Positions 1,593-58,923 of a DNA stretch of 64,000 nucleotides are shown one piece after another. The position numbers were made by a program, and so were the translations under genes. This stretch comes from Dictyostelium discoideum. Lineage: Eukaryota. The DNA lies in the NCBI GenBank assembly GCA_000004695.1, contig CM000152.2:4256001-4320000 (forward strand), in the 5' to 3' direction. Numbering within the stretch: position 1 is the stretch's first letter; every line of letters starts with the position of its first letter. The notes beneath the pieces are model-generated. The model was not told the origin of the DNA and did not search any database. It saw only the letters and a list, made by a program, of their open reading frames with translations.

Positions 1593-4272
1593 ATGGGAGG
1601 TTCATGGAAAGATAAAGCTTCTTCATATATTATTCAAGATTCATTAATTAGTAGTTCACAAGTTAAATCTCTGTCCAATAGTGCCATAGAAAGTTGTTTA
1701 AAAAATTTAGGAGTATGTTATTAAAAAATAAAAAAAAAAAAAAATAACTTTTTTCTTACTTACTATTATTATTATTTTTTTTTTTATTTTATTTTTTTTA
1801 TTTTTTTTTTTATAGTATATAAGTTACTTTTCAAATTCTATAAATGAAATGTTAAGTAAATGTGATAGTAGATATATAATATCAATATTATATTTAGTTG
1901 ATGGTATATTTAGAGTATTAAATAAAAATTATGGTGAAGAGAATAAAAAGAAAGAACCATTATTTTCACAATTAAATGAATCATTCTCTTTAATGTTACA
2001 ACAAAATGAAAAGAAGATTCTAGGCTCAACACCAGAAAAAGATTGTATAAAATTAATTAAACTACTTCAAATTTGGTTAAAACGTAATGATTTAGATCAA
2101 CATTTATTAAAGAAATGGGTTTTTAGAATTTCAACAGATTTAAATATTGATATAGATAATTTAGATTCATACCAAACTAATAATAATAATAATATAAATG
2201 AAAACAATACAACTATATCATCATCATCAACATTTGTAAATAAAAAGAGAACATTAGATAGTAATTTTGATATTGATGATATACTTGAGCCATCATCATT
2301 TAAACATCAAAAAGTAGATAATAGTATTGGTATAAACAGTATTAATAATAGTAATAAACTATTACAACAACAACAACAATTAAATCAATTATTAAAAGAG
2401 AATTTAATATATGGATTACCAATGGAGATGTTATTTGAAATTTTATCGAATTTATCAGTTGTAGATTTAGTTAAAGTTTCAAAAGTTAGTAAATTCTTTT
2501 ATAGTGTTGTAAATAATTTACCAAGTTGTACGAGTATATCATTTGAAAATATGATTTTACCATCAATTGATATGCAAAGATCATTGATTCAATTTAATTT
2601 AGTTGTAAATGTAAATCTATCCTTTAGTAGATTCGTTACAAATGATGTTATAATCACATTAGCAAAACATTGTAAACATTTGGAATCTTTAAATGTTAAT
2701 GGTTGTTTACAATTGGATTTAACCTCGATGATTCAATTATTAAGACATTCAAGAAATTTAAAATCTTTAAAAATGTCTCAAGTCGTTTGTGATGGTGTTA
2801 TGGAATTATCAAATAAATTAAAAAACACATCACAAAATTCAAATACTACTACAACAACAACCACTACCACAACAGCATCAAATACAAAACATAAAAAACA
2901 ACCAATACCATTTGGTAGATTAGGAAGATATCCAAATAAAAGAGCGAGAGCAAGAGAAAGAAAAGCAAGATTAAAACAAAAACACCAACAACAACAACAA
3001 CAAGCTAAAACAAGAAGAATAAAAGATAAAACCAAAGAGGTATTATTAGCTAAAGTTTTCTTTGATTTATTATTTAATATTAAGAATGGTATTATTGATG
3101 ATTCTGATGATATTGATGATGATAATAATAATATAAATAATAATAATGAAAATAAAAAAAAAGTCACTAAAAAGAAAAAGAAAAAAGAAGTCAAGGGCAA
3201 TGCTAGTGGTGAATTAGATCAAGAATTTATAGATTTAGTAAGTGATTGTGAAATGCGTGAACATGATGAAAATGAACAGAAACATATAGATATAGAAAAT
3301 AATTGTAATAATAATAATAATAATAATAATAGTAATAATAATAGTGATGATAGTAATGAAGAAGAAGATTATGAAACTAGTGAAGAAGAAGAAGAAGAAG
3401 ATAATGAAGATGGACATGGCTTTAATTATGATGATTATAGTTATCACTATGATTATGATTATGATGACGATGATGATGAATATAGAATTGGGAGAGGAGG
3501 AGGAGGAGGAGGAGGAGATGGAGGAGAAAAAGCAGTAGGAGAAGGAGGAGGATACAGTAATTCTCCTGTTAATAATAAAAAAATTAGATTAAGAGAATTA
3601 GATATTAGTTGTTGTCATCCATTAATATTTTTAATACTTCAAAATTATAACAAACCATTATCAACAAGTTTAGTTAAATTAAATATTGATTGTATGTGTG
3701 CTTCAATTGAAATTGGTGGTTATGCCGCTGGTATTAATAATATTTTTAGCAATTTTCCATTCCTATCAAAATTAAATTCATTATTTAATCCTATAATACA
3801 TAATAATAATAGTAATACAACAACAACAACAACCACCACATCAGCTACAAATACTAATGAATCATCGTTAACGAATAATATTCAAATGGTACCAAATAAT
3901 TTTAAAATTATTGTAAAATCAGATTCAATTTGGAGACGATTAATTTTTAATGATTCAAATGGTTTCGAAAAATTGATATTACAAAAACAATCACAATATC
4001 TACAACAACCAAATTCAGAATATTCAATTAAAAAATTTAGGAAATATGTTAATAAACGTTATTTATTTGGTACAACTTCAATTTATATGGCTTGTAAATA
4101 TGGAAATTTTAAAGCAATTGATACTTTAATGTCATTAAATTCAAATAATAACAATAGTAATAATAATTATAGTAATAATAATAATAATAATAGTAATAAT
4201 AATAATAATAATCATAATAACAATAATAATAATAATAATAATAATAACAATAATAATAATGATAATAGTAAC

Positions 4273-4327
<55 letters not shown>

Positions 4328-4812
4328 GAGTTGTAAATATTAATATACCAGATTATTATGGTATAACACCATTATTAGTTTCAAATAATATTTTCATTGT
4401 AAAGAAATTAGTTGATGAATATGGTGTTGTTGCATCAAGTGAATTTGAAGAATTATTTATAAAGGTTTGTTTAATATTAAATAAATATCATTCATTCTTA
4501 ATTGAAGAATCACAAGCTAGACCTGATTCACCAACAAATGAAGAGTTTGATCAATTGTTAACCATGCTTTTAAAAACACCACCTCTAATTACAAATCAAG
4601 AAATTTATCGTCAAAATAATATCTTATTGGTAAAGTTTGTAAAAAATTTTAAATTCTTTCAAGACTATGTCAAAAGTTCTCATAATATTACAAAACGTGC
4701 ATTGCTATTATCTCAAACATTACGTGATGATTCAATTTATGAAAAAACTGATCTTTCAAATATGAGTAAAGAATATGAAAAAAGAATTTTAATGGTTTTA
4801 TATCATGGTTAA
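1593..4812 (+). CDS. CID/RPR-like N-terminal domain + F-box + LRR-like + ankyrin-repeat protein, poly-N/T rich. Exons 1593..1712, 1816..4812
   Basis: ORF 1849..4812, plus a predicted upstream exon (MGGSWKDKASSYIIQDSLISSSQVKSLSNSAIESCLKNLG) with a GTATGT donor at 1713 and a tttatAG acceptor at 1815, in frame with no stop. The N-terminus (ISILYLVDGIFRVLNKNYGEE..PLFSQLNESFSLMLQQNEKK..CIKLIKLLQIWLKRNDLDQHLL) follows the CID/RPR pattern of SCAF8/Pcf11 (LYVIDSIVRQS...F...L..W..R.V). The F-box is LIYGLPMEMLFEILSNLSVVDLVKVSKVSKFFYSVV. Ankyrin repeats are at TSIYMACKYGNFKAIDTLMS...DYYGITPLLVSNNIFIVKKLVDEYG. Confidence 0.7.
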
Positions 4813-23236: not shown

Positions 23237-24707
23237 TATTGATTATTAATTTTAAAAAAAATAGTTAAATGTAATTCATTTAATTTTATTAATTTGTATA
23301 TTTATTAGATCATTATTAGTAATAATTGATCCATCATCACCAAATAATTCAATATTACATATTGATACAGAATCATGGTTAATTTATATTTATACTATAT
23401 CATATTATGTAGTTGGTGAGATTATACCGGGAATGTTGTTGATAGTGATTGAATTTCTATTACCATATCATAAAAGAAAAGATTTTATAAATATTGGTGG
23501 AGAATTATCAAGTTATCAAGATGTTTGGAAATCAGAGAATATTGCAATTCATGAATTGCTAGGAATGGGTGGTAGTGGTGCTATGGTGCATAAATGTACC
23601 GTAAAGAAAGGTCCATTACGTGGTGGTACTTTTGCAGTGAAAGTAATGAAAGATTGTACAAATGAAGATATTGAATCGTTAGAGAATGAAATTAGAGTCT
23701 ATGAAAAACTAAAGTCACCCTATATCGTCTCCTATCAAGGTTCAAGTAAAGTCGTTGGTTCAAGTGGTCAAATCTTTGAGATTCGACTATTCATGGAATA
23801 CATCCCACATACATTAGATAAATATCTATTAGCAAGGTCAGTTTGTGGTGATTCAAATGGTGGTGGTTCAAGTAGAAATTTAAAAAATTATTTTTTACAC
23901 ATGCAAGAATATCAATCTTCACCACAATCTTCAATTTCATATTATCAGAATAATAATAATAATAATAACAATTCACCATTAATACAACCACAACAACAAC
24001 AACAATATGTCTATCCATATTATTTTAGATATAGTCAAGTTGTTTGGTATTTATATCAAATTTCAATTGGTTTGGATAATTTACATGCAAATAAAATTGC
24101 TCATAGAGATTTAAAATCAAATAATATTTTTGTAACTTTATCAGAGAGTGAAGTTAAAATTTGTAAAATTGGTGATTTCGATATCTCTAGATCTTTTAAT
24201 AATCCAAAAGTTTTAAATGTTTTATCAAATCCAACAGCTTTACAACAACAAAAATTAAATAATTTCTTTCAATCAGCAACAACAACAACAACAACAGAAC
24301 AAACAACAGAGCCAATAGAGGTAGCAGCAACAACAACACCTCAAACAATTCATTCAGCATTTCAACATGATATTTTATCTTTTGGTTTTATTGTTTTAGA
24401 CTTTTTAACTTTATCAAACTATAGTTGTTTTGACTCAAAATTTGATACTTCAAACTACTATGATGATGATAAATTCAATAATAAATCAAATACAAAAATT
24501 AAAAAACCAGATTTACCAGATTATATAAAAAAAGATGAAAAACTTTGGGAACCTGTCATTCAACTTTATAAAAGTTGTACATCTGATGATCCAAATAAAC
24601 GACCTTCTTCACTTGGTGTTAAATTTCATTTAGCCAATCTTTATAAAGATATTATAGAGTCTGGCACTGAAGTTTGGTCAATTGAAAAAGATTCTTCAAG
24701 TAAATGA
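22355..24707 (+). CDS. Multi-pass (about 7 TM) membrane domain fused to a C-terminal Ser/Thr protein kinase domain. Exons 22355..22632, 22778..23171, 23265..24707
   Basis: Exons 1-2 encode about six hydrophobic helices (IIPLILLCFYSVNGFVAVISSLV, IKIFFYSLLILQCLCRCIIIGWGM, NFPSLLFISYAGLVALQMIQFL, NILIFFNLFMYFGMFLLFGIA, IYIVLDCFYFVCLLLLLIFHSYVGW). Exon 3 opens with another (LIYIYTISYYVVGEIIPGMLLIVIEFLL), then kinase subdomains GMGGSGAMV, FAVKVMK, HRDLKSNN and DFD. Splice sites (GTAAGA/GTAAGT donors, AG acceptors) keep one frame with no stops. Confidence 0.7.
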
Positions 24708-26029: not shown

Positions 26030-27583
26030 ATGGATAAAAATAATAATAATAATAATAGTAATGGGGGACATGAAAATTTATTTAAAGATCTTCAAAATCA
26101 AAAAAGAGTTCAAAATCCATCATTTAGTTCTGGTCAAAGTAGAACAGTGCCATCAATTTCTGCTCGTGGCGTGGCACCAATTAGCTCATCATCAAGTTCA
26201 TCATCTATTTCAACAACTAATAACACTACTACTACTACTACAAGTGGTACTGGTAGTACATCATCACCAGTATCAAAAGGTGTACCATTAATACCAATTG
26301 GTGCATCAAGATTTAAACAACAACCATCAACAGATGTTTGGAGATCAGCAAGAGGACAACAATTATCAGAATCACTTTGGTCGTCTTTTAAACAAGCATT
26401 GCAAAATTCTCAAAATTCTCAACAATCTTTATCACAATCTTTATCACAATCTCATTCAACAAATAGTGAGGTATGTATAAATATATATATATTTTTTAAA
26501 ATAATTTTAATTTTTACTAATTATTTTTATTAATTATTTTTTTTTTTTTTTTTTTAGATTAATAATATTTTATTGGAGTTTGTAAAACATTATAATTCAG
26601 AATATGATAAATGGAATGTTGAAATGGGAGTTGATTATGCTAATACAAAAGTATATGGAATTAAATTATATTGTACACCAGTATTAGATATCCAAACCAC
26701 ATTATATTTGACTAGACAACTTTGTTCTTATGTTTTAAATTTATCAAAGGCATTAACTGATGATAATTTGGATATACCAGATGGTTTACATTTCATATGT
26801 TTAATAAACATTTTATCAAGATCACCATTGAATTCAACATTATTACATCAAGAGAATGCATTGGCACATCCATTTCAAGCAGCACGTCTTGCATCTTATA
26901 AACTCTCTTCTTTTAGAGACAAAAATAATCCATCCTTTACAAAATGGTGGCCATACCTTAAAGTTTTATTAGCTAATTGTTGTCAAATTGCTACAAATTT
27001 CGTACATGATAAACAAAATTTATCTTTTAATTCTTTAAGGTATGGCAATGTAAATAATAATAATAATAGTAATAATAATAATAATATTGTAAATAGTACC
27101 AGTTTAAGTAGTGGTAGTTTACTTTCAAATGGTGGTGGTATTAGTACTAGTGAACCAGAGATTTCACCATCAACATCACCATTAACAGGTACAACTCCAA
27201 CATCACCATCAAGTTCTTGGTCATCATCTTCAATAACTAATCATCAAATTCAACATCAAATTTTAATGCAACAACAACAACAACAACAAGCTCAACAACA
27301 ACATACTCAACAATACTTTAATACGATTGGACAAAGTAGTAGTTATTCCTATACAAACGTTATCAATGGTGTTTCAACCAATAATAGTACAATAACAGCA
27401 ACAACTACAAGTAATTTCTTAATTCAACATATATTTAAACTTGGTACAATTTCAATTTTGATGGATTCTTTACAATTCTTTAATGATTTCTTTAAAACTC
27501 TTCAACCAAAAGATTCAGAAGATTCATTTAGATTATTGATTATTGATACATTAGGTATTTTAATTAGTGGTAATGGTGGTTTG

Positions 27584-27625
<42 letters not shown>

Positions 27626-28540
27626 GCAACATCAACAAATACAACACCAAATACAATAATTAATAATACAACAATAAATAACAGCGGTTTAACAAATAGT
27701 ATTAATAATAATAATGGTGGTAATAATAATTTAAATAAACTTAAAGAACCAGGTAACGAAATTAAAACAATTATAAATTGTATTGGTATGAAAGCGTATA
27801 TTAAAACAAGTAAAAAAGTAACATCATTACAAAACGAATTTCAATTTCAATTACATGTTATTAGGGTGATTAAAGAATTGATTTCAAATAATTTAAATAA
27901 TGCAAAATATTTTAATTCTCATAGAGGTTTTGAAAAAATTCAAGAGGTTATATTATGGGTAACTCAATGTTTTAAACCAACAGATTCACATACATTCACT
28001 GATGAAAGTTGTTTAGATTTTGATACTTCAATGCCTGCTCAAGAATTATCTGCCTTATTAATTGGTGCAACTTCTTCAAATTCTTCTAATAATCTACCAA
28101 ATTTAACAAATTCAATATCATCACCCTCACACTCATCCTCCTCCTCCTCCTCAACAACAACAAATATTAATAATAGTAATAATAATACAGCAACAGCAAC
28201 AACAACAACAAGTAATGTAATAATTCCACCAACAATGTATGATAGTTTAAATTCAGTTTTAAATTCATTAAAATATACGACTTATTCAGAGAAATCATCA
28301 TCACTTATAAAATCACCACCAATTATTGTTAAAAGAAGTAAAGTTGTACAACTTTCACAATTGTTTCAAGTTTTACATTCATTTTCTTTTACACTTGTAC
28401 CATTTTCAAAAATTCAAACTAATTCCTCCTCTTCTTCTGGTAATTTAAATTACAATATATATTCCTCCTCTTCAGCATCATTTATAAATAATAATAATAA
28501 TAATAATAACTGTAATATATCATCACCAACAAATCAATCT

Positions 28541-28616
<76 letters not shown>

Positions 28617-28858
28617 TTTTACCAAGATCAAATTCATCTTATTCAATATTTAGAAGAGGTGATAGTTTAAATACAATCATTGATATCAATCAAGATAATA
28701 ATAATAGTAATAGTAATAGTAATAATAGTAGTACACTTGATATTTTAAATAATAGTCAAGATACAATTGTAGATAATAATAATGGTAGTAATATTGATTT
28801 TGAAGCAACAATAACTACTAATACAACAACGGTCGTGACAGCAACCGTTAATTTAACA

Positions 28859-28895
<37 letters not shown>

Positions 28896-30338
28896 TGATT
28901 GATGGTAATACCGAAGTAACTGGTGGATCAGCACATAATAGTTGGTCAAGTTATACAAATATAAATGAACAATTTCAACAATTATCATTAACATCATCAA
29001 CGACAGCAACAGGATCATCACCAACATCACCAACAGCATTTCAATATCAATCAAAACCAATTGATAAAATGTTTGTGAATACATTATTAATTGAAACAAT
29101 TTTTGAAAAATTATTTTCACAATTAAATCTTAGTGCTTTAAATGAAAATCATTCAACAACTTCTTCTTTACCAATTAGTCAAAATTTAAGTGATGATTCC
29201 TCAAATACAAATACAAATAATAATAATACATCATTTGGTAAAATTTATATTTCAGATAATTTACAACAAAATCCAAACACTGATAAATCATTATCATGTG
29301 GTAAAATTTTTAATAAGATTAAAAATTCAACACCAGAACTTCAATTACAAATAATTGAATATTTAATTAAATTAGTAATAGAGAATCCATATTGTTTACC
29401 AATTCTTAGAAGATTTAATCTTTGGGAATTAATATTTTCTGATAATTTTTATTATTCATCACCACAAGCAACTTTAAATGATGATGATATTGAATATTTA
29501 TTAAATTCAACCACCACTACCACCACCTCATCATCAACTAATATTTCAGAAGAACAATTAAAGAAACGTAAATTATATTTATTTAATGGATTAAGATTAG
29601 GTTGTTTAGGTTTAATTCAATTCTTTTCAACATTTAATAATAGAGATAATTTTGAAGAGATTTGTATAATTTTAACAGAGATGAGAAAATCATTATTAAA
29701 ATCACCAGCATCAGTGATTGAGTTATGTCAATTATTAATTAATATCACTAAATCAAATCCTCAAGGTACAATTCAATCATTGATTAAATTAAGAATTTTC
29801 CAACAAATTCCACAAATGATTCAAGTCCTATTCAAATATGAACAGGCTAGTAACTCTCAATTTGGTTTATTACATAAGAAAGCTAGAAATATCATTTTCT
29901 CTTATCTAGGCCAATTGATAGTTCACGAAGAATTATCTTATCATGCAGTTGTTGAAAAAGAATTGATAGATGTTTTATTTTTATTATTAAGAAAAGTTGA
30001 AACTAAAACTTTTTCAATTACTCAAATATTTTTCTTAATGAAATTAAATGTTTCATCTTCTTCACCATCAGTTACAACTTTATTATCTTCTTCTTCACAA
30101 GTATTAAATTCATATCAACAACAACAACAACAACCACAACAACAATCATCACAACCACAACAACAATCATCACAACCACAACAAATTCCACAATCCCAAC
30201 TACAACAACAAAATCAAACACAGTCATTACAATCATCATCATTATCATCAACATCATTATTATTAACATCACAACATCAACAACCATCAACATCATTATT
30301 ATCAACATCACAGTTTTCATCATCATCATCCTTATTGC

Positions 30339-30421
<83 letters not shown>

Positions 30422-30441
30422 CCACAACTACTACAACAAAC

Positions 30442-30484
<43 letters not shown>

Positions 30485-30706
30485 GTTCAAACTCCATCAT
30501 CACCTCAAACATTAGCATCATTATTAGGAAATTCAAGTTCAAATACATTAACATCATCATCATCAACATTATCATTAAATGAATCATCAACATTATCAAG
30601 ATTACCAACATCAAATAATTTATCAGAATTATATAGGACATATATTTCCGAGTTATCAATGATTAAAGAAGAGACATCATGTACTTATGATTTTAAATTT
30701 GATTAA
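26030..30706 (+). CDS. Large low-complexity protein (about 1530 aa) with globular N- and C-terminal regions and an ARM/HEAT-like C-terminus. Exons 26030..26470, 26558..30706
   Basis: Exon 1 ([18 protein letters not shown]...STNSEV) ends at a GTATGT donor. The acceptor ttttAG at 26557 continues [21 protein letters not shown]... in frame. The track M at 26573 is a TTG. Non-repetitive segments ([23 protein letters not shown]; [56 protein letters not shown]) argue for real coding. The stop lies only 8 bp before the next gene's ATG. Confidence 0.6.
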
Positions 30707-38100: not shown

Positions 38101-38937
38101 TAGTTTAATTGCAATTTCAAATCAAGGTTATATTGTAATTTATTCACAAGTAAGTAAAAAAAAAACAAAATTTTAATTTAATTTAATTCATTTTTTTTTA
38201 TATTATTTTTTCAATATTTTCATCAATTATTTGCCAAAAAAAAACTTTAATTATATACTACTCTTTTTTTTTTATTATTTTGTTATTTTATTTTAGTGTG
38301 GTAATGATTCATTTGTAAGGATACATTTGAATTTATTTGTTCAACCCACACACACATCACATCCACACCCACACTTTTTTTTTTTCTCACACACCTAAAA
38401 CAAAGGAATATTTAAATCAAAATCTTTTTTTTTTTTTTTTTTGTTTTTTCAATAATACATGTAAATTTCATAAATAATTCGATTTCTCGTTTCGTTTATA
38501 AACAAATATGTTAAATTATAATAATCAATACTAATTTTTATTATAAATTTTTTTTTTTTTTTATTTTAAATTTCAAATTCACTCAGGCCGATTTAATGAT
38601 TTATCTATACAGTATAAATGGTGGACTCTTGAAAACAGTTGATACACACGAAAGATTACATAGTATTATAATAAGTAAAGATTCAGAGTATTTAATTACT
38701 GGTGGCGAAAGAGGGGTTGTTGTTATTAGAACACTTTTCAATTTAAAACCAACTAATCATAAATTAGTGTTTGGAACTCCAATTCATTCTTTAGCCATGG
38801 CATCCGATCAAAAACATTTAATGGTTGGTTTAGAAGATGGTAGATTATTAATTATTGCATCTAATAGTGCATCTCCTCCAACAAATTATTATTCCATTAC
38901 CAAATTCCTCATCTTCATTACCTTCATCATCCAATAA
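30715..38937 (+). CDS. Neurobeachin/LRBA-class BEACH protein (LvsA-like): ConA-like domain, ARM region, PH-BEACH, C-terminal WD40. Exons 30715..31005, 31187..38149, 38587..38937, about 2534 aa
   Basis: The N-terminal exon and following sequence are colinear with the NBEA N-terminus ([17 protein letters not shown] ~ NIRMKFAVLIGLIQVGEV; [20 protein letters not shown] ~ LLVGGEFDLEMNFIIQDAES; [16 protein letters not shown] ~ WPYQNGFTLNTWFRMD). The BEACH domain ([34 protein letters not shown]...[28 protein letters not shown]) is highly NBEA-like. The WD40 region is present (HWDNSFKLS...[11 protein letters not shown]...). Introns at 31006..31186 (GTAATT...AG) and 38150..38586 (GTAAGT...AG) are phase-consistent. 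Confidence 0.85.
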
Positions 38938-39295
38938 ATTTTAAAATTAAAAATAAAATAAATAAAAAATTTATTGGTTAAATAAAAAAAAAAAAAAAAA
39001 AAAACCTTAATATTTAATATATGAATATATTCAACATAACAACATAAAAACCAATTTTCCAAAATTATTTTTAGTTTTATTTTCCAAAAAATTGATTTTG
39101 GAATAAAAAATATTGTGTTTGGTATTTGTTTAAAAAAAAAAGGATTTTATTATAAATTATAATTTTGTTATTATAATATATAGAAAATAAGATGAGAACA
39201 TTTATGTTTTCATGTTTTTGGGTTTTTTTTTTAATTAAAAAGGTATTAAAGTTGGCTGATGGAATTTTTGGGGAGTGTTTTTAATTTTCTATTTA

Positions 39296-40210: not shown

Positions 40211-40729
40211 TAAAAAAATTAAAAGAAAAATATAATGGATAATATAATAAATATAAAAGATTGTCAAAATATTCCAATAATAATTGTTGGTAATAAAATT
40301 GATATTGACGAAAAAGAAAGAAAAGTCTCAACATTGGAAGGTAAAAATTTGGCCAAACAATTAAATTGTTTGTTTATTGAAACAAGTGCAAAACAAAATT
40401 TAAATATTTCAAAAATTTTTACAACATTGGTAAAAGATTGGAATGAAAAACAACAAAATATTAAAAAATTCTCTAAAAAAAGTTCATACTCAATTAAAAA
40501 CATTAATTGTTCATCAACAGTAAAAAGTAAAGAAAAACAAATAATAATTTCTGATATTAATGCTTATGAAATTTCATTTCAAAATAATAGTCTCAAAAAG
40601 TCAAATAGCTCTGATAATTTTAATCATTCTTCTCATAAAACAACAATTAAAATAAAACAAAATATCAGTGTGGATTCAATTCAAAAGAATAATGGAAAAA
40701 TTTCTAAACCAAAATGCCCTGTCCAATAA
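39825..40729 (+). CDS. Ras-superfamily small GTPase (divergent Ras/Rap-like) with a C-terminal CAAX-like CPVQ. Exons 39825..40103, 40226..40729
   Basis: G1 GEPGVGKSS; effector-region T in YTPTLEDF; G3 DTAGQEEF; G4 NKID after splicing (..SFKEV|KNIMDNIINIKDCQNIPIIIVGNKIDI); G5 ETSAK. The intron 40104..40225 contains (TAT)23. Confidence 0.8.
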
Positions 40730-40975
40730 ATTAAAAATTTGTAAATAGAAAATAATCTTATTTACAACAAATTGTTTAAAATAACTATAACTTGTAAATA
40801 TTAAAAAAAATAAAAATCAAAAAAAAAAAAAAAAAAATTATTAGTATTTTATAAATGAGATCATTATAAATACTGATATATTTTTGTAAAAACATTTTTT
40901 TGAAATTCAGTTTTAAATATGTTTAAAACAAAATAAATTATATATATATATATAATCAAATAATATAAATATTAA

Positions 40976-41366: not shown

Positions 41367-41610
41367 ATGATGAAATTTCTTAATTTACTGCCCTGTAACG
41401 GCAAAATCTCGTATTTTATCCTGAATTAATGAAACAGTATTTCAAGGAGAGCAACTAATAATTGAATTATTCAATTCGACAAAAAAGCTCTAAATCTTTT
41501 AATAAATTAAATGTCTGAAAATTTAAAAAAGAAAAATAATAGAAAAAATCGATTTTTTTTTTCAAAAAACCATTTTGGAAAATTAATATTTGATTTAAAA
41601 AAATACCCCC

Positions 41611-42211: not shown

Positions 42212-45618
<3,407 letters not shown>

Positions 45619-45959
45619 TATTAATTTAAAAAAATAAAAATAAAAAAAATAAAAAAATAAAATAAATAAATAAAAAAAAAATAAAAAAATATATAAAAAA
45701 TAAAATAAAAAATAATAACAATATTAAATAATTAAATAATTTATTTATTATTTTTTTTTTTATAGTTGGAACTTTTGTTTAACATATTAATCTAATTTAT
45801 CTTTTTTCAAGATTTAATTAAGCTTTTTTTACAACCAAAATATCTAAAAAGATATTTTCTTAAATTTTTCTTAATTTTTTTTTTTTTATTTTTTTAAATT
45901 TGTTGGTTGAAAAAAAAAAAAAAAAAAAAAAAAAAAGAATTTTGTTTAATTAATAAAAA

Positions 45960-51064: not shown

Positions 51065-51170
51065 ATTTTAAAAAAGAAAATAAAAAATAAAAAATAAAAA
51101 CAAATTATTTATTATATTATATACAAAATTGAAATGAGTTTTATTTATCTCCTTTTTTGTTTATTTTTAT

Positions 51171-52826
51171 TTATCTTTTTCTATCTCTATCCCTATCTAT
51201 ATCTCTTTCTCTTCCTCTACCTCTATCCCTGTCTCTTTCTCTTTCTCTACCTCTATCCCTATCTCTTTCTCTGTCTCTATCTCTGTCTCTATCTTTTTCT
51301 CTTTCTCTATCTCTATCTCTATCCCTATCTTTTTCTCTATCTCTATCCTTTTTCTTATCTTTATATTTTTTCTCTTTTTTCTTTTCCTTTCTTCTTTTTC
51401 TTCTTTCATAATCAGAATCATCACTTGATGAATCAGTGTCACTACTTGAATCACTTATATCACTAAATTGAGATAAATAAGATTTAACGTTTTCAACCCA
51501 CTCCTCTTTTTCTTGTTCTTTTTTTTCTTTTTTCTCTCTCTTTTCTTTTCTTTTCCTTTCCTTTTTTTCCTTTTTCTTTTGTTCTTTTTTTAATTTCTTT
51601 TCTTCTTTTGATAAAGGTTCATTTAGTTCTTTTATTATACTTTTTAGTAATGGTGAAATTGATTCTTTTGTTTGTTGTTTTTGCTCTTGTTCTTTCTGTT
51701 TTTGATCTTGTTTTAAAAAAGAAGAAAATGGGTCTAAAGTGTTGTCTTGTTGTTTTTGTTGTTGTTGTTGATCTTGTTTTAAAAAAGAAGCAAAAGGATC
51801 TAATGAACCATCCTGTTTTTGTTCCTGTTGTTTTTGATCTTGTTTTAAAAATGCTGAAAATGGATCTAATTCATCACCATTTGACTCTTTATTTTTCTTT
51901 TGTTGTTGTTGTTGATCTTGTTTTAAAAATGAAGAAAATGGGTCTAATTGATCATCAGACATAGGCTCCATTTTTTGATCTTCACCATTTTGTTTATCAT
52001 CACTTTCAAATATTGCCTTAAATAAATCGATTGGAGGTCTTTTGGCCTCCTTAACTTGAAATTCACCATTACTTTCAAATGTTGATACATTATATTGATC
52101 ATTATTACCAAATAATTCTTCAAGATTTAATTGAGCTGTCATATTTAATGTTGATGCTGCTGTTACTGTGGTAGAAGTTGGACTACTACTTGATTGTAAA
52201 ATAGGAGATGGTGATGGCGATGATTGTGTGGTTGCAGTGGGTATTGAATTTCGAATATTTGAATTTTGCTGTGTTGGTGAATTAGTTTCAAATGTAGCAT
52301 CAAATGGTATTTGATAATGAGTTGGTATATTTAGTTTTGATTTCCAATCATTTGATGATTTTTGTTTTAATTGCTTTTCAATTTTAAAATTTTCAACCTC
52401 TTCTCTTGAGTAAGGTGGCTCAACATTGAAACGTCTACATAATAATAGTTCAGGTACCCATTTTTCAATTAATTTCTTTGATTTAGTTTTTAATTTATTA
52501 TTATTATCTTTATTTTCATTAGATGTTGATGAAGAAGATGATGATGATACAAATCTATCATTTAATTTACTTTGAAGTGGTGAAAATGATTGAGCATACC
52601 TTTCAAAAACTTTATTCTCTTTTTCTTTTTCAATCTCTGAAATATCTCTATAACTTGAATAGTTTATTAATGATTGTTCTTTTAAATTCTTATCACCTTG
52701 TTTATCAAGTATATACTCATTAAATCTTAACCTTCTACCTGGATCCATTAAATATTCCATTGATTCTTTAATTATATTACCTGAGTTAATTATTGATTGT
52801 TGTGGTTGTGGTTGAATATTTTGAGT

Positions 52827-52879
<53 letters not shown>

Positions 52880-53167
52880 GCTGTTTTTGTTTATTAATTG
52901 AAAGTTGTAATTCACCTAATAAATTTGATCTTTGAATTGGAGTGATTGTTACAATATTTGTAGGTTTTTGTAAAATATTTTTATCTAATGGTGAAGTGAA
53001 TTTATGGTAATAATTAAAGTTAATTGGTAATTGTGGTGGTGGGAACCATTTAATTTCAAATGAAGTTTGACCACTACTTAATATAAATCCTTTCAAAGGT
53101 AATGTGCCATCAGAGCATCTTATTGTATATTTATTATCAATGGGTCTTAAAAAATCAACTATACCAC

Positions 53168-53200
<33 letters not shown>

Positions 53201-54514
53201 TCTTTATTTTATTGTTTTTACTACCTAACCAAGTATTTTTATCTCTTTCTCTCTTTTTATCGAATAAACCAGTATCATAAATATCATCATGATTTTCATT
53301 ACCATATAAATCGAAACCTTTGTCATCATCATCTTCTAATGCACCCAATCCAAATGATCCGATTGAAGACTTTGATGAATCCATTGATACACGGTTTGAA
53401 TTTGATTTTTGATTTTGAAAACGCATATTTTTTACATCTTCAGAAGGTTCATAACCAACACCATAAACATTATTCTTTTGTCTAATGTCTAATAGTTTTT
53501 TACTTGGTTCATTTAAAAGTATATTTTTATAAGCTTCTTCATCACCTGTTTCATCCTCTTCATTATCATCACTTTCATCACTTTCATCAACATCTTCATT
53601 ATCACCATTATCGAATGTATTATTATTATTATTATTATTATTAGTAGTAGTATTTTGAATGATTGATAAAATTGATTGAGGTATTTCTTCACCATCTTTA
53701 AGCTGTGATAATAGTTCAGAGGGTATTTCAACACCATCTAATGAAACCAATGATGATGATGATGATGAATGTCTAGACTTTTTATTTATTTTATTTGATT
53801 GCCTTTGTTTCTTTCTTTTTAATTTATTTTCTAATTGAATTCTCTTTAATTGACCCATAGGTTCATTCTTTAATTTATTCACACCCATTAATTTTAATAA
53901 TTTTACACCTATAGATTCTTTTGATGCTTCAACTATATTATTATTACTACCTTCATTAAATAAACTTTTTAAATTATTTGTATTTAAATTATTACTATCT
54001 AAATTATTATTATTATTATTATTATCATTATCATTACCAAAACTACCCAATCCACTGAAATAATTAAAATCAGAATGAGTTGTTAATTCTTTTGCTCTAT
54101 GTGTTAAATCTTCTTCATCCATAAAATCTTCTGGTTTTAATGGTTGAATATTATTAGATACTCTTTCAGTTTTTGATGATTTAAAAGTTGACGGTGTCCA
54201 TCCTTCTTTTGAACCAACTGAATTGAAATAACCTGCTGAAAATCCACCTGTAAATGCACCATGAATCTCTTTCTACCACTTTCATCCATTACCTCTTGTT
54301 TATGAATCGGTTTAAATGATTCTTTAAATGTTTTATTACTATTTGGTGTAAAATCATCATCATCTTTAAATTCAAATAATGTTCCAATTAATTTATTATT
54401 ATTTTTATTATTATTATTCTTTTTTTTTATATAATTATAATTTTCTTCATTTTCATTATTATTGCTATTATTACTATTATAATCATAAAAATTATTATAA
54501 TTATTTCTTTTCAT
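51171..54514 (-). CDS. GPATCH1-like protein (DUF1604 N-terminal region, G-patch-like motif, C-terminal RD/RE-repeat tail). The reading frame is interrupted by an apparent 1-nt deletion near 54263
   Basis: Frame A (54514..54137) encodes MKRNNY...[18 protein letters not shown]. Frame B then encodes (I)[39 protein letters not shown] and runs on through the 983-aa ORF to 51171. The conserved GPATCH1 block is ..[30 protein letters not shown], so the expected ..agattcCatggt.. is present as ..agattcatggt.. with one C missing. [12 protein letters not shown] is G-patch-like. The tail is [15 protein letters not shown]... . Confidence 0.6.
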
Positions 54515-57681: not shown

Positions 57682-57915
57682 TTAGTATGCAGTAAATTTT
57701 AATTATTAATTATTAATTATTAATTATTACTTTAAAACAACTTCATCTATTGCTGGTAATAAACTTTTTAATGAATTTATTTTATTTAAACTTTGATCTT
57801 CTAAACATGCTTTTATAACTTTGGTAACTGTTTCAGAGTATTGTTGTTTATGTAAACCTGGTTTTAAAAATCTTAAATTGGTTTCAATGGTCTTATTGAT
57901 AAATGTTTCTGCCAT
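55777..57915 (-). CDS. TPR-like + C-terminal PH-domain protein. Exons 57915..57731, 57586..56705, 56623..55777, about 637 aa
   Basis: The PH domain is [53 protein letters not shown]...[33 protein letters not shown]. Exon 2 has TPR-like helices ([54 protein letters not shown]) and a Ser/Thr-rich linker. Introns are GTAATA..aaAG and GTATAA..tatAG, with phases checked. Confidence 0.65.
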
Positions 57916-58426
57916 AGTTGTAGTAATTAATAACTACCTTTATTAGTAGTATTTTTTTTTTTGGTTTTTTTTGTTTTTTTTTTTTTTTTTTGTTTTTTTT
58001 TTTGTTTGTTTTTTTGGGTGTATGTTTTTTTTTTTTTTTTTTTTTTTTTGTTTTATCCAAAAACTTGATTTACTATTGATTTGGAAAATTTCTTTTGACT
58101 TTTATGACTTTCTGTGTTTTTTTTTTTTTTTTTTTTTTTTGATTTTATGTGTATTACAAAGCCGAATGAATTTATGATGTGTATTTAAATTTGGGTTCTT
58201 GTCGTTTGGGATCTTTTTGACTTAAAAAAAAAAAAAAAAAAATTATTTTTTTAAATTTTCTTTTCTAAAATCAAAAAAAAAATAAAAAAAAAAAAAAAAA
58301 TTATTTTTTTTTATTTTTTTATTTTTTTTTTTATTTTTTTTTATTTTTCTAATTTTTTTATGAATCATTATAAAAAATATCTCAATCAGGTTCTATTGCG
58401 AGTCAAAAATAGTTTTTAAAGGGGTT

Positions 58427-58457
<31 letters not shown>

Positions 58458-58923
58458 TTTATTTTCTTATAAAAATTAATTATTAATAATGTTAATCCCT
58501 TTTTTTTTTTTATATTTAAGGTTTTATTATTTTTATTATTATTATTTTTTTTATTATTGATCATTATTTTTTTTTTTTTTTACACAGTTTTTCTTTTTTT
58601 CTTTTGCACTTTTTACAATTTTTATTTTTTTTTTTTTTTTTTTTTTTAAAGGGATGGGTGATTCTGTTCTCAAGATATTACTATTTTTTATTTTTTTAAT
58701 TGAAATTACCACCCTCAAAAAAAAATAAAATAAAAAAAATAAAAAAAATAAAAATAGCGCTAATCATAAATGGTTGTTGTGTTTAGAATAAAAAAATAAA
58801 AAATGAAAAAAAAAAAAAAAAAAAAAATGAAAATTTTTTTTTTTTTTATTTTTTTCACAATTATTTATTTTTTTTACAAAATAACGAGGATACCGATAAA
58901 AATAAAAAATTAAAAATTAAAAA

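Follow-up and report, generated by a model that had tools for sequence, protein, structure and literature searches.

The window analysed here is a 64,000-nt stretch of the Dictyostelium discoideum genome (assembly GCA_000004695.1, contig CM000152.2, positions 4,256,001 to 4,320,000 of the forward strand). Its G+C content was 22.9%, and coding repeats of poly-N and poly-Q type were abundant. Two genes in this stretch are considered. The first lies on the minus strand at 51171-54514 and, judging from its domain content and its closest homologs, is the single-exon dictyostelid ortholog of GPATCH1; its reading frame is split in two in this record (Table 1). The second is a neighbouring BEACH-domain (neurobeachin) gene on the plus strand, in which two further 1-nt indels were found.

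The split GPATCH1-homolog gene

The N-terminal part of the gene (frame A) opens with MKRNN, and the last Phe codon before the break reads TTC (54265-54263, minus strand). A preliminary description of this DNA had stated that this frame runs into a stop. The stop exists, but it is not reached at once: translation in frame A would continue for another 41 codons, giving an ORF of 125 aa in total. No homology was found for this out-of-frame tail; translation of it would require the deletion to be real. The rest of the coding sequence lies in the -1 frame (frame B), which proved as long and open as had been claimed. It cannot be extended upstream because of an in-frame TAG, located just ahead of the junction as previously noted. 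Met132 is the sole possible re-initiation point of frame B, and the 983-aa product starting there is without the invariant block of the DUF1604 region. Adding one base at the break yielded an ORF of 1114 aa (the repaired protein).

Table 1. Positions of features of the GPATCH1-homolog locus and of clustered differences from GCA_054883475.1 (window coordinates)
Feature	Position	Strand	Details
N-terminal coding part, frame A	54264-54514	-	ATG at 54514; 83 codons + 2 nt; ends ...VMDESGRKR + TT
Out-of-frame tail of frame A	54137-54262	-	41 codons past the break; stop at 54139-54137; Pfam blank beyond residue 84
Remaining coding sequence, frame B (-1)	51171-54263	-	1030 open codons, then stop at 51171-51173
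TAG in frame B	54273-54275	-	Precedes the His codon by three codons
First ATG of frame B (Met132 of the intact protein)	54120-54122	-	ORF 51171-54122, 983 aa
Lesion	54264-54265	-	TT (plus strand AA) in the window versus TTT in the conspecific assembly and two dictyostelids
DUF1604 (PF07713)	54066-54313	-	Residues 68-150 of the repaired protein; lesion splits it between profile positions 18 and 19
G-patch-equivalent segment	53883-53912	-	Fungal homologs read IGVKLLRKMGWRPGQGIGP here
Substitution patch	30600-30702
Substitution patch	38866-39083
Substitution patch	40690-40765
Substitution patch	41471-41610
Substitution patch	57855-58784

When the unrepaired window frames were searched with Pfam, the DUF1604 profile was cut exactly at 54263/54264. 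Residues 68-84 of frame A matched profile positions 2-18, weakly (E=0.023) and below the Pfam cut-off of 25 bits, and frame B matched positions 18-84 (E=1.6e-26). The protein repaired by one base matched positions 2-84 of 84 in one stretch (E=3.5e-35, 120 bits). Because the DUF1604 match is divided over both frames and is rejoined by the repair, the frame break is more than a chance arrangement. These results bear out the earlier proposal of a 1-nt deletion within a conserved block of a GPATCH1 homolog. A decaying pseudogene, with several lesions or relaxed constraint, was also considered and was rejected, as the gene carries a single lesion and frame B stays open over its whole length.

When the protein was aligned with six homologs, H85 to S93 and many neighbouring residues proved invariant; the junction motif had one form in five of the six homologs and another form in the sixth. 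A downstream motif, LLCRRFNV, and a second conserved motif were common to other dictyostelid homologs. A database-wide protein search returned 1303 matches at E<=1e-5. The best of these were dictyostelid homologs (E=9e-101 to 3e-56); next came fungal proteins annotated as 'G patch domain-containing protein 1' or as 'DUF1604-domain-containing protein'; no protein named as belonging to the genus Dictyostelium was found among the matches listed.

The G-patch domain (PF01585) gave no Pfam match on the expected segment of the repaired protein, even at E<=10, and precomputed Pfam annotation lists PF07713 alone for the homologs of P. violaceum, T. lacteum and A. subglobosum. By eye, a helix-like G-patch remnant aligned with the fungal IGVKLLRKMGW, and the glycine-rich loop was replaced. 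On the strength of DUF1604 the gene is therefore clearly a homolog, albeit one whose G-patch is degenerate or undetectable. All TGH orthologs have been listed with both DUF1604 and G-patch domains (PMC7154892). Given the missing G-patch signature, one must ask whether GPATCH1 of dictyostelids is still able to activate the helicase DHX35.

The C-terminal third of the GPATCH1 homolog contains four copies of LDPF(S/A)(S/A)FLKQDQ, spaced by about 22-26 residues (51717-51944, minus strand). Similar DPFS(A/S/L)F motifs occur once or twice in the homologs of P. violaceum, T. lacteum and A. subglobosum. The C-terminal tail (51174-51347, minus strand) consists of (RD/RE/KD) dipeptide repeats, like the charged tails of splicing factors, and the plus strand opposite this tail carries spurious low-complexity ORFs at 51134-51466.

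An intact allele in a second assembly and in relatives

When the neighbouring 1129-aa ORF was looked up by exact protein identity, one matching place was found, in the independent assembly GCA_054883475.1 (contig CM142509.1, chromosome-scale, 6.43 Mb), on the same chromosome. At the position of the split gene, this locus (L001) carries a called single-exon gene of 1114 aa, and its translation is identical to the repaired protein. The junction DNA reads AGAGATTTCATGG in L001 and AGAGATTCATGG in the window. The codons are AGA TTT CAT in GCA_054883475.1 versus AGA TT- CAT in the window, or -/A on the plus strand between window 54263/54264 and L001 position 18305. This indel was the sole difference between the window and L001 across the 3,344-nt gene, with no second lesion and no drift in the long N/Q repeats.

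The same junction was found in relatives. The genomic locus of T. lacteum reads AGA TTT CAT GGT and that of P. violaceum reads AGA TTT CAC GGT, both contiguous and in frame. A comparison with dictyostelid orthologs had been put forward earlier as a check, and in both species the RF-HGAF junction is present. The preliminary description had taken the missing base for a C; the conspecific assembly and the two dictyostelids point instead to a T of the T3 run (Phe TTT), with the same consequence for the protein. An intact GPATCH1 allele certainly exists, because an error could not by chance recreate an ORF of 1114 codons together with the invariant motif.

Further searches yielded little. A metagenome scan with a pattern allowing one or two bases at the site (N{1,2}) gave 0 matches, and an exact look-up of the adjacent 100-aa ORF for further contigs found nothing. 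None of 10 window ORFs was present in the protein collection by exact look-up. Literature searches found no account of a Dictyostelium GPATCH1 gene, of accession GCA_054883475 or of errors in the D. discoideum genome.

The intact allele and the orthologs also bear on whether the two frames could be joined at the RNA level. A tiny intron might do so, either GAG/GTAATGG...GGTAG (20 nt) or a version ending in ...AAAGAG (26 nt). Both candidates have GT...AG ends and leave an open frame across the junction, and they are the only ones that reach frame B. However, each would remove residues that are invariant in homologs, in agreement with the earlier view that no splice can rescue the frame. Dictyostelid introns average about 150 nt, and the neighbouring methyltransferase gene implies one of about 90 nt from its gene span and product length; 20-26 nt is far below these sizes. 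Moreover, neither the intact allele nor the orthologs have an intron or any other interruption at the junction. We consider such an intron extremely improbable.

A programmed -1 slip after UUC, with the C re-read as the first base of CAU, or the insertion of a base into the mRNA, is very improbable as well. A -1 shift at UUC would give ...KRF-HGAF... and hence exactly the conserved protein, and frame B is fully open for its 1030 codons. The site, G AGA UUC AUG, however, lacks a slippery heptamer of the form X XXY YYZ, and tRNA-Phe would face AUU after the slip. The 123 nt downstream had a minimum free energy of -22 kcal/mol compared with a shuffle mean of -18.6 (z=-1.09), and 25 of 200 shuffles folded as well. 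The frameshift is also not conserved, as the conspecific assembly, T. lacteum and P. violaceum are in frame with TTT CAT or TTT CAC. With regard to base insertion, a run of two or three T is far too short for transcriptional slippage, and insertional RNA editing in Amoebozoa is known only from mitochondria. It is very improbable that the genomic TT is real and that full-length GPATCH1 is made by an unconventional -1 shift in which the C is read twice at a site that is not canonically slippery. The analysis turned up no exact match to the window that yields a full-length protein by another route; such a find had been named in advance as one that would refute the frameshift.

Differences between the two assemblies and the origin of the missing base

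We compared window positions 6755-31045 and 35934-59403 (47.8 kb) with two loci of GCA_054883475.1 (L001 and L002). Identity was 99.75% and 99.6%, with 60 differences in the 47.8 kb. Eighteen of these were length differences in long A or T runs, and the window was the longer in all 18, by 1 to 32 bases. This uniform direction means that one of the two assemblies has a systematic technical bias. If the shortness of the runs reflects an error tendency of GCA_054883475.1, that tendency is towards deletion, the opposite of the extra T that this assembly has in the GPATCH1 gene.

Perfect triplet-repeat tracts of 8-43 units had the same length in both assemblies in 26 of 27 cases; the only exception was (GTA)34 at 43467 in the window, which has 37 units in the other assembly. 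Because such long triplet tracts mutate fast, their agreement suggests a shared or almost identical lineage behind both assemblies, in which case few true mutations would be expected between them. Most substitutions fell into tight patches (Table 1) that also contained 1-nt indels and double substitutions at adjacent positions. The patches resemble local low sequence quality rather than mutation. Isolated substitutions were also present, for example at 23593 (K/R) and 57326. Some of these could be real polymorphisms, and the two sources would then not be the same clone. Isolated coding substitutions (K/R in a kinase and K/N in a GTPase tail) were considered as an arbiter between the assemblies and proved uninformative.

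A 987-aa ORF at 1849-4812 (plus strand) had no exact counterpart on record, unlike the 1129-aa ORF and a 1413-aa ORF, which were found in GCA_054883475.1. Introns or another assembly difference may account for this.

The BEACH-domain gene, which encodes 4069 aa in GCA_054883475.1, contains a lesion of the same kind. At 30702 (plus strand) the window reads TTGATTAAT and the other assembly TTGATTTAAT, the window being without one T (T2 versus T3). This lesion ends a 1377-aa ORF (26573-30706) inside the Neurobeachin alpha-solenoid region. The frame of GCA_054883475.1 matches Pfam Neurobeachin (PF20425) across the site (E=2.5e-14), and at this position GCA_054883475.1 is demonstrably the intact version. 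Two substitutions, 30600 G/T and 30637 G/T, lie within 100 bp. Further along, the patch at 38866-39083 (plus strand) holds twelve differences within about 220 bp and looks like low sequence quality. Among them is an extra T at 38892 in the window, which alters the C-terminal tail of the BEACH gene; here, too, GCA_054883475.1 is probably the intact version. At all three coding 1-nt indels, this assembly reads through in the annotated frame, demonstrably at 30702 and 54264 and probably at 38892.

Between the window and the independent assembly there is a one-base discrepancy at the GPATCH1 junction, the independent assembly carries an intact allele and the orthologs are in frame. The missing T is probably a sequence or assembly error, and we infer that it is this record, and not the sequenced strain's DNA, that is at fault. 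Under this explanation, the real junction of the strain would be AGA TTT CAT, encoding the intact 1114-aa protein, and a base-calling, consensus or assembly error would have dropped one T from the T3 run. The loss would split the reading frame in the middle of DUF1604, and the frameshift would encode nothing functional. We favour an error in the record because the two lineages appear nearly identical, because a second T2/T3 frameshift is demonstrable in the window at 30702, because error-like patches are present and because the 3.3-kb gene shows no other change. Against an error, the GPATCH1 site is isolated. It lies outside any patch, with the closest other differences at 45910 and 55195, and is not visibly within poor-quality sequence, unlike the indels in the patches at 30600-30702 and 38866-39083.

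The missing T might instead reflect a genuine 1-nt deletion that arose very recently in the sequenced strain or lineage, creating a null or N-terminally truncated GPATCH1 allele; we regard this as possible but rather unlikely. Among real small indels, a lone one in a short homopolymer is the most frequent type, and the few isolated substitutions between the assemblies are possibly true variants. That the gene has no other lesion is equally compatible with a very young mutation and with an error. Knockouts of GPATCH1 in C. neoformans are viable (10.1101/2021.03.19.436190), and by analogy a real null allele would be tolerated. However, the agreement of the hypermutable triplet repeats leaves very little true divergence, and a single real frameshift in 48 kb that hits the most conserved block of a conserved gene would be rare a priori. 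The same record also contains at least one more demonstrable frameshift against an intact conserved domain, at 30702, and that one sits in an error-like substitution cluster. If the deletion were real, the products would be the 125-aa frame A protein or the 983-aa protein from Met132, neither of which is recorded as an exact match in any other assembly of the collection, an absence that carries little weight. The 983-aa protein would probably be non-functional, since it is without the invariant block, and cDNA or RNA-seq reads from the source strain would be expected to read AGAUUCAUGG.

The range of causes given in the preliminary description holds overall: a sequencing or assembly error is the probable one, a strain-specific inactivating mutation is a tentative alternative and recoding falls far behind.

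Implications and comparison with known systems

The frame break in the GPATCH1 gene is an ordinary one. It implies no new biology, and its practical use is as an annotation warning. When this record serves as the reference, the GPATCH1 ortholog will be annotated as a pseudogene or as a truncated 983-aa protein, or be omitted, and surveys of spliceosomal proteins could wrongly score GPATCH1 as absent from the species. The BEACH gene, at 30702 and 38892, is affected in the same way. If the deletion were true, the strain could serve directly as a GPATCH1 mutant, of modest value for studies of splicing fidelity, and a laboratory lineage in wide use may naturally be null for a DHX35 cofactor.

What such a mutant would lack is indicated by other systems. 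Fungal cryo-EM has shown the conserved N-terminus of GPATCH1 docked on PRP8 and probing the active site of spliceosomes that have stalled (PMC11958768). Fungal and human GPATCH1 bind and activate the spliceosomal helicase DHX35, rejecting faulty splicing substrates (PMC11958768; 10.1101/2021.03.19.436190), and loss of GPATCH1 in Cryptococcus relaxes splice-site fidelity and choice (10.1101/2021.03.19.436190). The window gene shares with this family (human GPATCH1, Arabidopsis TGH and fungal Gpatch1) the invariant DUF1604 block with (S/T)VGSKEGW. It differs from the family in that a G-patch is undetected and in its long poly-N and poly-Q tracts, its four LDPF(S/A)(S/A)FLKQDQ repeats and its (RD/RE)n tail. 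It also differs in having its frame broken at codon 84, in the N-terminal DUF1604 region.

The locus resembles programmed -1 ribosomal frameshifting in that one conserved protein is spread over two overlapping frames, which a -1 shift at a single codon suffices to join. Unlike such systems, the site in the window has no slippery heptamer, no stimulatory structure and no conservation. Comparable single-base errors, brought to light when a genome is assembled anew, are described for other reference genomes, for example M. tuberculosis Erdman (PMC12817950). For the present record, the fault is deduced from a comparison of assemblies. The locus is like indel errors of this kind in that one base of a short homopolymer is affected, a conserved ORF is broken, the change is absent from an independent assembly and other error patches lie nearby.
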